NCBI RefSeq assembly: GCF_001548275.1
Contig: NZ_AP014945.1
Coordinates: 1,710,001 to 1,742,000 of the forward strand
Source of the DNA: Caldimicrobium thiodismutans
GTDB lineage: Bacteria; Desulfobacterota; Thermodesulfobacteria; Thermodesulfobacteriales; Thermodesulfobacteriaceae
Length of the DNA: 32,000 bases
Reading direction: 5' to 3'
The position numbers were made by a program, and so were the translations under genes. Under the pieces are notes generated by a model that ran no database searches, had not been told where the DNA came from, and was given only the letters and a program-made list of their open reading frames with translations. Shown piece after piece: positions 72-26,125 of this stretch (positions are counted from its first letter, which is position 1; the number at the start of each line of letters is the position of its first letter).

Positions 72-256
72 GTAGGAGGTGAAAATTTTAAACCCCCTGA
101 TTTTTGTGTCTGTTGTAGCACAGATATTCTTGTCTGTGTTTCTTTAATACCTTGGAATGTAATTTACCTTCACAGGCAAGATTGCCTGTGTTACTTTCAT
201 ACTTGATCCCCTCTTACCACCCTTTCTTTTTCTTGTAAGGATCTGAACTTGTGCAC
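72..256 (-). repeat. Copy 1 (reverse orientation, ~185 bp, internally shortened) of a dispersed intergenic repeat with two hairpins
   Basis: The reverse complement aligns by eye to 17941..18156 and 25777..25992, roughly 85% over the aligned part, with a ~30-bp internal gap. Hairpins: 119..138 (CACAGATA TTCT TGTCTGTG, one T.G pair) and 171..190 (CACAGGCA AGAT TGCCTGTG). Confidence 0.9.
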
Positions 257-260
257 TACC

Positions 261-290
261 TTGACCTTTTTTAATTTTAAGTTATAAAAT
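261..290 (+). promoter_or_regulatory. Candidate sigma70-type promoter of the pilin operon
   Basis: TTGACC (261..266), 16-nt spacer, TATAAA (283..288); alternatively TAAAAT at 285..290 with an 18-nt spacer. The -10 box ends only 7-9 nt before the ATG at 298, and no Shine-Dalgarno sequence lies between. Confidence 0.45.
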
Positions 291-8092: not shown

Positions 8093-9047
8093 TGGATATA
8101 CTTTAATTGAAATACTTTTAGTTATGCTTCTTTTAGGAATACTAAGTGGGATTATATTTAGCACATATAGAAACTTTATTCAGGAATATAAATCTCAAAG
8201 TATAGGTGTGAGAAAGGAGATGGAACTTTTAAGTTTACAAATATATTTAAGAAAACTTATCCAGAGCATAGGTTTTGGAATACCAAGAGAAATCAGCAAT
8301 TATCAAATTTGGAGTTCTCCAAATTGCACAGATTCAAATTTATCTAAATTCAAAAATAGCAGAACTATTATAGGTTTAGCTAACGATTGTTCTATTTCTA
8401 ATGGGCCTAAACATGATAGGCTTTATTTTAGGAGCTTATTTGCAACTGGAGCAAAAGAGGCGGGATGTTGGTGGGTTATTTTACCGGATGGAGAAAAAAA
8501 GTCTATGGCTGTAAATAAATATGGATTTACATGCAATGCCATTTATGAAAATGATACATTATGTTATTATTTAGATGAAAATAGAAATTATCACAAAGAT
8601 TATCTTGATCAACCACTTAATTGCACCTCAAATTTAAAGGGTCCTGGTTTTTTATTTTTTTACACCAAAGGCAATGAAACACCTCCTGAAGTTTTTCGGC
8701 TGCACCTATCCGCCTTCGATGATAATGAGATAGCCCAAAAGCAGGCTTGTGCCCCAAAAAGTGGTAAATTAATGTTACAAAGGGAATGGAATATTCAAGC
8801 TCAACCCATTTTTGATTGTGTTGGAGGATTAAAATTTGATTTTATAGGTAATACTACTAATAACTTGCCATCTGCTATACAAGTATGCCTTCTTGTGCAA
8901 GTAAGTGGTAGAATGAGCACTAAAAGAGAGGTTCCTTTAAATTCTCAGTGTGGCCCTTTCCAGGAGGAGGATCCTGAATGGAAATATTATCGCTGGAGAG
9001 TTATAGAAGAGAGAATATCCTTAGAAAATTTAAGAGGTATCAAATGA
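8082..9047 (+). CDS. Minor pilin, PilW-like
   Basis: The ORF is open from 8061. The ATG at 8082 gives MKNNG|YTLIEILLVMLLLGIL with Glu at +5. It overlaps the upstream stop (8090..8092). About 320 aa, a size typical of PilW. Confidence 0.7.
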   Translation: MKNNGYTLIEILLVMLLLGILSGIIFSTYRNFIQEYKSQSIGVRKEMELLSLQIYLRKLIQSIGFGIPREISNYQIWSSPNCTDSNLSKFKNSRTIIGLANDCSISNGPKHDRLYFRSLFATGAKEAGCWWVILPDGEKKSMAVNKYGFTCNAIYENDTLCYYLDENRNYHKDYLDQPLNCTSNLKGPGFLFFYTKGNETPPEVFRLHLSAFDDNEIAQKQACAPKSGKLMLQREWNIQAQPIFDCVGGLKFDFIGNTTNNLPSAIQVCLLVQVSGRMSTKREVPLNSQCGPFQEEDPEWKYYRWRVIEERISLENLRGIK

Positions 9048-9547
9048 GGGGGAAATTGTCAATTCAAAGAGAGAGGGGAAGTGCTTTATTTACTGCTATA
9101 ATGTTTTCATTTATAGGCCTTCTTATTATAGCAGGGCTTGTTGCAGTGTGGTATAGATTAACTCATATTTTATTCCCTGTAAAAACTTATACATCAGTTA
9201 GAGAAGCCTCTGCAGGTGGTATTAAATTATTAGCATCTTATGTGGATCAAGGATACTTTTCCGAATTAGATAGAGGTATTTGTCCGCCAGGTACTTCCCC
9301 AACAGCCAATGGCACATGTTGTCTCGTAAATTTGAAATACAAACTTCTTGGCGAATCTAAGGAATATATTAATCCTATTACTATTTGTTTTTTGGGATAT
9401 CAACCTCAACCTGGTTTTGAAATTACAGGTGTTGCATACACTTCTCAGGCGGCAAGACTGGGATTAAATTATATTTATGGGTTTAATTCCACTGCCTATG
9501 GGCCAAATAATGTCACAGCCTATGTTGAAGCAGTTTATATTAAGTAA
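9044..9547 (+). CDS. pilX: PilX-like minor pilin / pilus assembly protein
   Basis: The ORF is open from 8978. The ATG at 9044 forms an ATGA overlap with the upstream stop. The N-terminus MRGKLSIQRERGSALFTAIMFSFIGLLIIAGL matches the PilX_N pattern (ErGsaL followed by a hydrophobic helix). Confidence 0.7.
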   Translation: MRGKLSIQRERGSALFTAIMFSFIGLLIIAGLVAVWYRLTHILFPVKTYTSVREASAGGIKLLASYVDQGYFSELDRGICPPGTSPTANGTCCLVNLKYKLLGESKEYINPITICFLGYQPQPGFEITGVAYTSQAARLGLNYIYGFNSTAYGPNNVTAYVEAVYIK

Positions 9548-16724: not shown

Positions 16725-16785
16725 TCTCTTTGAAATTGTTAAAAAATTCTCTTGAATTTCCCCTAAATTCTGGCAAAATACCTCT

Positions 16786-17796
16786 ATGTCAAAGAAGAAA
16801 CCTCCCATTCCCTATGACCTTTTTGCCAAGGCCTTCCTCAAAGACCCTGAAAACTTAAAAGGCTTCCTCTCAACCTTCCTCCCTGATCACATTAAAACTC
16901 ATCTTGACCTTGACTCCCTTAAAATTATCCCTGAAGAACAGGTTTCTCTCTCAAGAAAAAAGCGAGAAATCCCAGATCTTGTTGCAGAGGTTAATCTCCT
17001 TAGTGAAGGTAAACCTTCAACCAAAGCCCATCTCTACATCCTTATTGAGCACAAAAGTGCACCTGATAAAAGAATTTACCTTCAGATTTTAAATTACATA
17101 ACCGCTTTAAATGAGAGGTCTTTCAAGGAGGGGAAGGGGTATGTGCCTGTTTTACCTCTTGTGTTTTATGAAGGGGATAAGCCCTGGGAGTATCCTGAAA
17201 GGATAGAGGAGATATTTTCAGTGCCAGAGGGGTTAAAGGGGGAACTTTTTAAGCTTCATGTGGTAGATTTAAAGAGGGTAGAGGATGAGAAGATTTTGAG
17301 GGTATTTGATATTTTAGCAGGGCTTGGGTGTTATCTTTATTTAATGAAGGCGGAAGCACTGGAATTTGATGAGATAATTGAAGTTATTACAAGGGCGACA
17401 GAGAGATTAGTAGCAATAGGGGAGAAAGGAAGATGGGAGATGGGGTTTTTGATAGAGATAGCAGTAATAAAGAGTGGGGTTGACGAGGAGGTAATCTGGT
17501 TTAATATATTAGATAGTTGTGAAGAAGAGGGGGTAAAGATGGAGTTAAAGAGCTTTTGGGATAAAGTGGGAGAGAAGTTTTATAAGCAGGGTATTGAGCA
17601 GGGGAAATATCAGGGGTTAATACAGAATGCAAGGGAGCTTGTGCTTGAGGCCATAGAGGTGAAGCTTGGGTATGTGCCGGAGGAAGTGAGGGAGAGGGTG
17701 GTAAGGGAAGAGGATAGAGGAGTTCTCAAGGAGTGGCTGAGGAAAATAATTCTTGCGAAGAGCTCTGAAGATATCTTTCAACTTTTTGAAAATTGA
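16786..17796 (+). CDS. Rpn-family recombination-promoting nuclease / YhgA-like putative transposase (PD-(D/E)XK)
   Basis: N-terminus PYDLFAKAFLKDPENLKGFLSTFLP, then the nuclease core ...PDLVAEV...HLYILIEHKSAPDKRIYLQILNYI, plus a helical C-terminal extension typical of this family. Confidence 0.75.
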   Translation: MSKKKPPIPYDLFAKAFLKDPENLKGFLSTFLPDHIKTHLDLDSLKIIPEEQVSLSRKKREIPDLVAEVNLLSEGKPSTKAHLYILIEHKSAPDKRIYLQILNYITALNERSFKEGKGYVPVLPLVFYEGDKPWEYPERIEEIFSVPEGLKGELFKLHVVDLKRVEDEKILRVFDILAGLGCYLYLMKAEALEFDEIIEVITRATERLVAIGEKGRWEMGFLIEIAVIKSGVDEEVIWFNILDSCEEEGVKMELKSFWDKVGEKFYKQGIEQGKYQGLIQNARELVLEAIEVKLGYVPEEVRERVVREEDRGVLKEWLRKIILAKSSEDIFQLFEN

Positions 17797-17940
17797 TAAT
17801 TTCATAATTTTTACAACTTATCTAACTTTATCAACTGTTATGGCTTTGTTAGAAATTTGTAAGGGTTAAAATTTTAAACTCCTTCAACAAAATTCTTTTT
17901 TTAAAAGACGCTGTTAAATATTTCAATTATAAGGCGGGGG

Positions 17941-18156
17941 TATAAGTTCAGATCCTTACAAGAAAAAGGAAGTGGGGTAAAAGGGGAATTAGATATCTAT
18001 ACAGGTGAGGCTTTATAAGTTTGTAAAAGTAACACAGGCAATCTTGCCTGTGGAGGTAAATTACACTCCAATCTGTGAAAGAAACACAGACAAGAATGTC
18101 TGTGCTACAACAGACCCCCAAAAAAATTCAAGGGGTATAAAATTTTAAACCCCTAC
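17941..18156 (+). repeat. Copy 2 (full length, ~216 bp) of the dispersed two-hairpin intergenic repeat
   Basis: About 94% identical by eye to 25777..25992. Hairpins: 18033..18052 (CACAGGCA ATCT TGCCTGTG) and 18085..18104 (CACAGACA AGAA TGTCTGTG). A third weaker stem is AGGGGT-N12-ACCCCT at 18130..18154. Confidence 0.9.
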
Positions 18157-18193
18157 TATTTAAGTCTCAAAAGATATGGACTTAGACATTTGC

Positions 18194-22704: not shown

Positions 22705-22992
22705 AGGTGACCTCCTGCAATTTTTTTGTTTATAATATACCCATGTTTCCTTTGCTTAAATTTAAGAAAACGGGGGACAAGAACTCCATATCACCTGGGC
22801 TTAAAAGCCCCAAAATGAGTCTGTCCCAACTCCCAAAGAGAAGGTTTAAGCTAAAACCCATTGCCACACGGGAGGATGGAGTAAGGCACAACTTTAATTC
22901 TATTCCCATCAAATATTTAGTAGAAGGATTAATAATTCCGGGGTGATTTGCCATGGCTAACTTTTTTACCTATTTTCTGATAGTTGACTCCT

Positions 22993-25700: not shown

Positions 25701-25726
25701 CTGCATAAGTTTATATTTTTACAAGA
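25701..25726 (+). repeat. Solo partial duplicate of the left end of the intergenic repeat
   Basis: CTGCATAAGTTTATATTTTTACAAGA here versus CTGCATAAGTTCATATCCTTACAAGA at 25776..25801, 75 bp downstream. Confidence 0.7.
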
Positions 25727-25776: not shown

Positions 25777-25992
25777 TGCATAAGTTCATATCCTTACAAG
25801 AAAAAGGAAGTGGGGTAAAAGGGGAATTAGATATCTATACAAGGGAGGTTATACAAGTCTGAAAGTAACACAGGCAATCTTGCCTGTGGAGGTAAATTAC
25901 ACTCCAATGTATGAAAGAAACACAGACAAGAATGTCTGTGCTACAACAGACCCCCAAAAAAATTCAAGGGGTATAAAATTTTGAACCCCTAC
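25777..25992 (+). repeat. Copy 3 (full length, ~216 bp) of the dispersed two-hairpin intergenic repeat, between divergent ftsK and fhs
   Basis: About 94% identical by eye to copy 2. Hairpins at 25869..25888 and 25921..25940 are identical to those in copy 2. Confidence 0.9.
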
Positions 25993-26125
25993 TTAAGGAA
26001 AGATTTTGCAGATTTTTTATCCTTTCTTTCCGAAGGGGAACGGGTATGTGGAAAGATTTAATTTGTGTTAGGCCCTAAGAAAAAATCCTATAGAGTCTCA
26101 AAAGATATGGACTTATACACAGCTC

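Follow-up and report, generated by a model that had tools for sequence, protein, structure and literature searches.

The window, by which is meant the whole 32-kb stretch of DNA analysed from the hot-spring bacterium Caldimicrobium thiodismutans, contains three copies of an intergenic repeat of about 215 bp, which is probably a non-autonomous REP-based mosaic of the REPIN/BIME type, spread as a composite by a RAYT. The identification of its two main hairpins, H1 and H2, as GTAG-tagged REPs is well supported.

Copies and parts of the repeat

The initial annotation of this DNA had described three copies with defined ends and no terminal inverted repeats, an internal deletion in the first copy and two hairpins with 8-bp stems in each, all of which was recovered here. 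The copies, each of them extragenic (between ORFs), and their parts are listed below by position in the window.

72 to 255, minus strand: copy 1, filling the gap between divergent promoter-like sites at 62-35 (minus) and 261-290 (plus)
17942 to 18156, plus strand: copy 2, between the Rpn/Transposase_31 gene and the rplM promoter
25780 to 25992, plus strand: copy 3, in the spacer of the divergent gene pair ftsK-fhs
17942 to 17986, plus strand: left arm of copy 2, ATAAGTTCAgATCCTTACAAGAAAAAGGAAG..GTAAAAGGGG, with a 5-bp hairpin TCCTT/AAGGA; REP-less copies occur elsewhere in the species
17988 to 18014, plus strand: variable module of copy 2 with the palindrome TAGATATCTA, absent from copy 1
18029 to 18052, plus strand: REP H1 of copy 2, GTAA tag and CACAGGCA-ATCT-TGCCTGTG
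18085 to 18108, minus strand: REP H2 of copy 2, GTAG tag and CACAGACA-TTCT-TGTCTGTG
18131 to 18156, minus strand: right-end hairpin of copy 2, AGGGGT..ACCCCT, ending in CTAC (GTAG on the minus strand)
25865 to 25888, plus strand: REP H1 of copy 3
25921 to 25944, minus strand: REP H2 of copy 3
171 to 194, minus strand: REP H1 of copy 1, GTAA tag on the minus strand
115 to 138, plus strand: REP H2 of copy 1, GTAG tag on the plus strand, one T.G wobble in the stem
25701 to 25726, plus strand: lone, degenerate piece of a left end, CTGCATAAGTTTATATTTTTACAAGA, which stops 54 nt short of copy 3 (direct reading)

Using BLAST and a repeat search, copies 2 and 3 were found to be 94.4% identical over 216 nt, in agreement with the annotated estimate of about 94%. 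Copy 1, on the reverse strand, was 90-91% identical to copies 2 and 3 over the ungapped arms only; it is without the 27-nt internal module and without 5 nt near the right end. Homology between the copies starts at (TGY)AYAAGTTCA and stops exactly at ...CCTAC, the CTAC/GTAG tag of the right-end hairpin being the point where it ends. By direct reading, the two ends (ATAAGTTCA... and ...CCCCTAC) are unrelated, with no terminal inverted repeat in the three copies, and the flanks of the three copies are not duplicated at the target site; a MITE was rejected on these two grounds. The conserved unit reaches 87 nt leftward and 48 nt rightward beyond the REP dimer. Divergence between copies was alike in the left part and the REP part (91 vs. 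94%, and 91 vs. 90%), which fits duplication of the whole composite.

The pattern CACAGRCA-N4-TGYCTGTG (one mismatch or less) was matched six times in the window, always within the three copies, while 0.00 matches were expected by chance (100 shuffles). These are the six instances of H1 and H2, each with an 8-bp stem and a 4-nt loop. Because the stems are palindromic, orientation is readable only from the flanking tag and the loop. H1 is tagged on the plus strand (GTAA, loop ATCT) and H2 on the minus strand (GTAG, loop TTCT), and the opposite reading of either hairpin gives no tag. The pair, which had been described as lying in the same orientation, is therefore inverted with its tags outward, as in the HH dimer of PMC3733652. 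The start-to-start spacing of H1 and H2 is 52 nt, and with RNAalifold (five available copies) H1 paired with H2, tags included, in a long hairpin of about 24 bp on either strand. By this prediction the dimer can fold in single-stranded DNA either as two 8-bp hairpins or as one REPIN-like hairpin of about 24 bp. Among the features of a REPIN, an inverted REP pair, a short spacer and predicted pairing into one hairpin were found, and among those of a GTAG REP, a short palindromic stem-loop (20-40 bp), an unpaired GTAG-like tetranucleotide at one end and an extragenic position. The known REP hairpins of C. thiodismutans, six in the 66 kb sampled, are all inside one 26-kb stretch; a further 34 kb of this species (loci L134 and L135) contained no REPs and no full copies.

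The tag and stem of the right-end hairpin, GTAGGGG, were not clearly enriched in intergenic DNA, so no second REP class is claimed. A hairpin of the form GTA(A/G)GGGTTAA..TTAAC is present just past the Rpn stop codon (17855-17895 in the window, 9035-9070 in locus L121) and resembles an inverted right-end hairpin of the repeat. Two other candidates were rejected, a CRISPR for its wrong period and lack of spacers, and a LexA box for the wrong order of the half-sites.

The hairpin in other genomes and RAYT genes

A loose double-hairpin scan of one genome per species gave at least 120 loci. Among the matches listed, these were in MAGs of Planctomycetota, Acidobacteriota, Verrucomicrobiota, Ignavibacteria, Omnitrophota and others, and the hairpins were single, in tandem arrays (period of about 30-33 nt) or in inverted doublets. 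Hairpins of the form CACAG[A/G]CA-N4-TG[T/C]CTGTG carried GT[AG][AG] on exactly one side in 257 of the 278 cases among the matches listed; GTAG accounted for 99 of these 257 and GTAA, the second commonest tag, for 66. Read from the tag, the loop was TTCC in 183 and TTCT in 40 (223 of 257, among the same matches). H2, with GTAG and TTCT, is a perfect member of this family, and exact matches to it comprised a 28-nt stretch with the hairpin in L094 and 24-27 nt in several unrelated MAGs. The inner 3 bp of the stem, which were free in the search pattern, were fully complementary in 463 of the 589 matches listed (9 expected) and varied in a compensatory manner across the hairpin family (ACA, CCG, GCA, CCA, CCT and others). 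Since free stem bases are complementary with many pair types, the hairpin itself is under selection.

RAYTs are Y1 HUH (tyrosine) transposases related to IS200/IS605 TnpA, and REP hairpins are their known kind of substrate. Using tblastn and phmmer, RAYT-like ORFs were identified in 11 of the 120 loci among the matches listed, and Y1_Tnp (PF01797) was confirmed by Pfam in REP-adjacent ORFs. REPs of the CACAG type were located 400 nt or less from 11 of 12 RAYT domains (among the matches listed), with REPs on both sides in 8 of these 11 and in the outward-facing REPtron layout in 5. The core of the repeat (H1, spacer and H2) aligned at 76-82% over 86-89 nt with doublets in L119, L069 and L110, the latter two of which sit directly 3' of RAYT genes. 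A profile of the RAYT proteins had about 7000 relatives, several of them named 'REP element-mobilizing transposase RayT' by JGI; no Caldimicrobium name was among the 120 matches listed. The absence of a Y1 transposase or RAYT from the window had been noted before, and no such gene was found there or in the other Caldimicrobium sequence fetched (66 kb of C. thiodismutans and the sister loci). H1 with its lineage-specific loop was matched in the metagenome scan by only two solo REPs, on high-GC soil contigs. Viral contigs gave 2 matches to the exact REP pattern and 0 to the left-arm pattern, and the supplements of the GTAG-REP paper contained no match to the hairpin sequence or its translated peptides.

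In unrelated MAGs, the RAYT domain and flanking REP arrays were also observed in frame inside long host ORFs, as follows.

L110, 3776 to 7948: ORF with in-frame RAYT and REPs
L069, 911 to 3994: ORF with in-frame RAYT and REPs
L022, 2510 to 4909: ORF with in-frame RAYT and REPs
L034, 2 to 3109: ORF with in-frame RAYT and REPs
L053, 6 to 2876, minus strand: ORF with in-frame RAYT and REPs
L118, 3219 to 7007, minus strand: ORF with in-frame RAYT and REPs

Four of the host ORFs, with two different insertion points between them, encode a DNA methylase of the Eco57I/TaqI_C type, and the others encode valyl-tRNA synthetase and the glycine dehydrogenase GcvP; the REP arrays within them are translated as peptide repeats (TDIPVCE.., QTGMSVLP.., TQPGAAVPHS..). 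These look like tolerated in-frame REPtron insertions.

Promoters, related strains and mosaic modules

The CTAC end of all three copies faces a TTGACA -35, at 9, 37 and 133 nt. The window copies lie 5' of promoters, which is unusual for REPs, most of which are 3' of genes (PMC3733652). This position could reflect access by a single-strand-specific enzyme to negatively supercoiled DNA upstream of promoters, or it could reflect later co-option. Separately, six promoters, those of rplM, fhs, tRNA-Met/Cys, rimP-nusA, tRNA-Leu and tRNA-Ser, have a 22-nt palindromic motif, (A)GTCTCAAAAGATATGGAC(TT), at 9-11 nt upstream of the -35, which resembles TTGACA (TTGTAA in the case of tRNA-Leu). The motif, likely bound by a transcription factor that serves translation-related genes, was not observed at the loci of the sister species. 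The sites are:

window, 18164 to 18181: motif
window, 26095 to 26112: motif
L134, 1051 to 1068: motif
L135, 15087 to 15104, plus strand: motif
L135, 14847 to 14864, minus strand: motif
L135, 9715 to 9732, minus strand: motif

Strain and sister loci were located by exact-protein look-up, for which eight proteins of the window and five homologues from the database served as queries. The FtsK protein of the window is 100% identical to that of C. thiodismutans. In a conspecific MAG (L121/L127), 98.5-99.5% identical to the window, copies 2 and 3 occupy the same sites, copy 2 being 99.5% identical in L121. The stretch from the Rpn gene to copy 2 has undergone rearrangement there, with a piece of the variable module duplicated to the left of copy 2, and sequence identity picks up again exactly at the left boundary of copy 2. 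Sister Caldimicrobium species (FtsK 73-74% identical) have the same gene order over 22 kb. Their ftsK-fhs spacer is 260 nt long vs. 674 nt in the window, their dtd-rplM spacer is 113 nt vs. 1527 nt (Rpn gene and repeat), and neither BLAST nor regular expressions detected any part of the repeat or any REP at the sites of copies 2 and 3. The core promoter of rplM is closely similar in both. With the repeat absent at both sister sites and the rplM core promoter kept, copies 2 and 3 are lineage-specific insertions upstream of pre-existing promoters and not conserved leaders or RNA genes. The comparison covers these two sites, that of copy 1 being outside all comparison loci, and no empty site was found at nucleotide resolution, for which the sister species are too diverged. 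Elsewhere in the window, a 272-bp segment at 22717-22988, between a glycine-zipper gene and lolA and with a possible ORF of about 75 codons on its minus strand, is absent from two 99%-identical strains (L121, L122).

The left arm of about 45 nt occurs without REPs in the 34 kb, two regions of the same MAG reached through Rpn paralogues (L134 964-1010 and L135 15044-14996, 84-89% identity), so the unit is a mosaic. These REP-less left arms point at the promoters of tRNA-Met/Cys and tRNA-Leu, and by direct reading the short forms end in ...GTAG about where the long forms go on with GTAA-H1. Other modules were observed in the same DNA. One of about 75 nt (GCAGATTTTT.TCCTTTCTTT..AGGG.AA..GGTATG; 26008-26075 in the window and 887-955 in L134, about 70-75% identity) follows copy 3 on its right in the window, and in L134 it is on the opposite side, to the left of the left arm. 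Another intergenic repeat, 339 nt long and 88% identical between L134 (10771-11090) and L135 (12154-12492), is unrelated to the 215-bp unit. Together with its promoter, the Rpn/YhgA-like (Transposase_31) gene also forms a repeat, of about 1.1 kb, with 89-93% identity among the gene copies given here.

window, 16743 to 17812: Rpn gene
L134, 2322 to 3448: Rpn gene
L135, 9963 to 11023: Rpn gene

The 90% cluster of the closest Rpn homologue has 18 members, and the dtd-rplM site of the sister species is without the Rpn gene.

Origin of the repeat and its relation to known systems

The conserved core of the unit is a head-to-head dimer of GTAG-tagged REPs (GTAA-H1 ... H2-CTAC), with the third hairpin, ending in CTAC, closing the right end and the left arm and variable module making up the left part. 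In the origin that we favour, the hairpins would be bound while single-stranded, at a replication fork or where vigorous transcription leaves negatively supercoiled DNA in its wake, by a Y1 (HUH) transposase of the RAYT type whose gene would lie at another place in the genome or have since been lost. By reading the GTAG tags, cutting and rejoining, it would move or copy the unit without terminal inverted repeats or target duplications, and the composite would later have been fixed upstream of strong promoters. We infer that a RAYT acts on the repeat in C. thiodismutans and that the mobilised unit is the full 215 bp and not just the REP core, and any effect on the promoters nearby would likewise be an inference. 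Several points weigh against this origin: no RAYT or Y1 gene was found in the 66 kb or the sister loci; the full copies known number just three and share one 26-kb stretch, whereas high copy number is a hallmark of REPs; no empty site was resolved to the nucleotide; the copies lie 5' of promoters and not, as REPs usually do, 3' of genes; and the conserved unit extends well past the REP dimer, unlike a plain REPIN. Since left arms without REPs exist, recombination of modules, in place of transposition, might have spread the unit.

It is quite unlikely that the copies stem from mosaic intergenic modules recombining or undergoing gene conversion with no Y1 transposase involved, perhaps with the help of the multi-copy Rpn nucleases (PD-(D/E)XK, Transposase_31) of the genome. 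The Rpn gene lies 146 nt left of copy 2 and is repeated in its own right, the spacer between them is rearranged between strains, and the order of left arm, variable module, module X and 22-nt motif differs between loci; however, copies 1 and 3 have no adjoining Rpn gene, and the proximity of Rpn at the extra loci is biased because these were fetched through Rpn paralogues. No mobilisation of specific elements by Rpn proteins is known. A role as a cis-regulatory or architectural module upstream of promoters (a 'mobile promoter-upstream element'), in which strong housekeeping promoters would be served by the left arm, hairpins and right end, as sites of protein binding or DNA structure, and the REPs would be co-opted or incidental, has a minor chance of being the explanation. 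It would account for the aim of all three right ends, and of two REP-less left arms, at -35 or tRNA promoters, and the separate 22-nt palindromic motif at six translation-related promoters is in keeping with it. The distance from the repeat to the -35 is not fixed, however, and the sister species keep a closely similar rplM core promoter without the repeat. The only parts conserved beyond the species, moreover, are the REP hairpins, which occur elsewhere in tandem arrays, in ORFs and around RAYT genes. A fusion of the two ideas, in which a RAYT-type REP doublet joined a species-specific promoter-upstream module as a domesticated REPIN and became a portable promoter accessory in a thermophile, is unlikely; if true, the composite would preferentially land, or have been kept, in the negatively supercoiled DNA immediately before the strongest promoters (those of ribosomal protein, tRNA and Wood-Ljungdahl operons) and act as an insulator or architectural element.

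It is very improbable that the copies are small structured RNA genes or a 5'/3' UTR element, with one strand transcribed and the hairpins serving as stems or terminators. This had been the alternative in the initial annotation, which recognised no Rfam family, and the Rfam search agreed, with 0 matches at the gathering score (window, element and eight loci) and a best match at E<=10 of 21.8 bits vs. a threshold of 52 bits. Both strands fold well below shuffled controls; the z-score of -4.7 is, however, equal on the two strands, as expected for DNA palindromes. RNAalifold gave no compensatory pair among the copies on either strand, a result of little power with three distinct sequences. The substitution noted in the copy 1 stem (119-138) does leave a T.G wobble on the GTAG-tagged strand, as had been said, but the transcribed strand deduced from it does not follow, since the right-end hairpin of copy 1 has the opposite strand bias and no strand is inferable from wobbles in conflict. 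Hairpins with T-runs do form terminator-like sites on the minus strand; of the run annotated after H1, the first four bases, TTAC, are the reverse complement of the GTAA tag. Transcription is probable for many GTAG REPs (PMC3733652), but no promoter is common to the copies here, and the absence of the repeat from the sister species at the sites of copies 2 and 3 is a stronger argument than covariation. Nothing in this analysis supports an RNA gene.

A strict IS200/IS605 miniature (PATE), possibly with a TnpB/IscB guide-RNA scaffold at the right end, is likewise very improbable. That the repeat is a non-autonomous REP-like element related to IS200/IS605, as first annotated, is upheld insofar as its hairpin family flanks RAYT genes elsewhere, and PATEs share with it a related transposase superfamily, single-stranded hairpin chemistry, sharp ends and the lack of terminal inverted repeats and target duplications. 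A PATE, in contrast, has a subterminal hairpin at either end, both oriented alike, and a recognisable full-length parent IS, neither of which was seen in the Caldimicrobium repeat. Its hairpins had been called subterminal, but the related pair lies inside the unit, 87 and 52 nt away from its ends, and is inverted, which makes it a REP dimer, REPIN- or BIME-like, in a larger mosaic. The hairpins match RAYT-associated REPs and not IS ends, no TnpA gene was found in the 66 kb, and the counts of exact matches in viral contigs given above likewise weigh against a PATE.

A RAYT-spread REP mosaic would place a REP/RAYT-type repeat in Thermodesulfobacteriota, a thermophilic lineage. The REP class GTAG-CACAGNCA-TTCY-TGNCTGTG is common to many phyla almost base for base. 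For annotation, three intergenic repeats that might otherwise be called sRNAs are explained. The fixed promoter-proximal orientation and the REP-less left arms together offer a small testable case of how REP-type elements choose or shape promoter-upstream DNA.

Among known systems, the BIMEs of E. coli and BOX of pneumococci are likewise intergenic mosaics of hairpin modules and conserved linkers in varying combinations, but have no sequence relationship to the Caldimicrobium repeat. REPINs of Pseudomonas and enterobacteria (Bertels & Rainey 2011, PMC3116915) share the inverted doublet, the single long hairpin, the lack of terminal inverted repeats and target-site duplications, and the presumed dependence on a single-copy RAYT; the Caldimicrobium unit, in contrast, is about twice the size of the doublet, has non-REP arms and was found with no cognate RAYT in 66 kb. 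The repeat agrees with GTAG REPs, HH dimers and REPtrons as they have been described (Di Nocera et al. 2013, PMC3733652; Nunvar et al. 2010, PMC2817692), although those REPs are of high copy number as against six hairpins in 66 kb here, and the Caldimicrobium units are 5' of promoters and embedded in a longer conserved unit. The main text of the survey (PMC3733652) does not mention Thermodesulfobacteriota. Common to both are the 20-nt palindrome with an unpaired GTAG or GTAA tag, the extragenic arrangement of two units 52 nt apart with tags outward, and the flanking of RAYT genes by the hairpin in other genomes.
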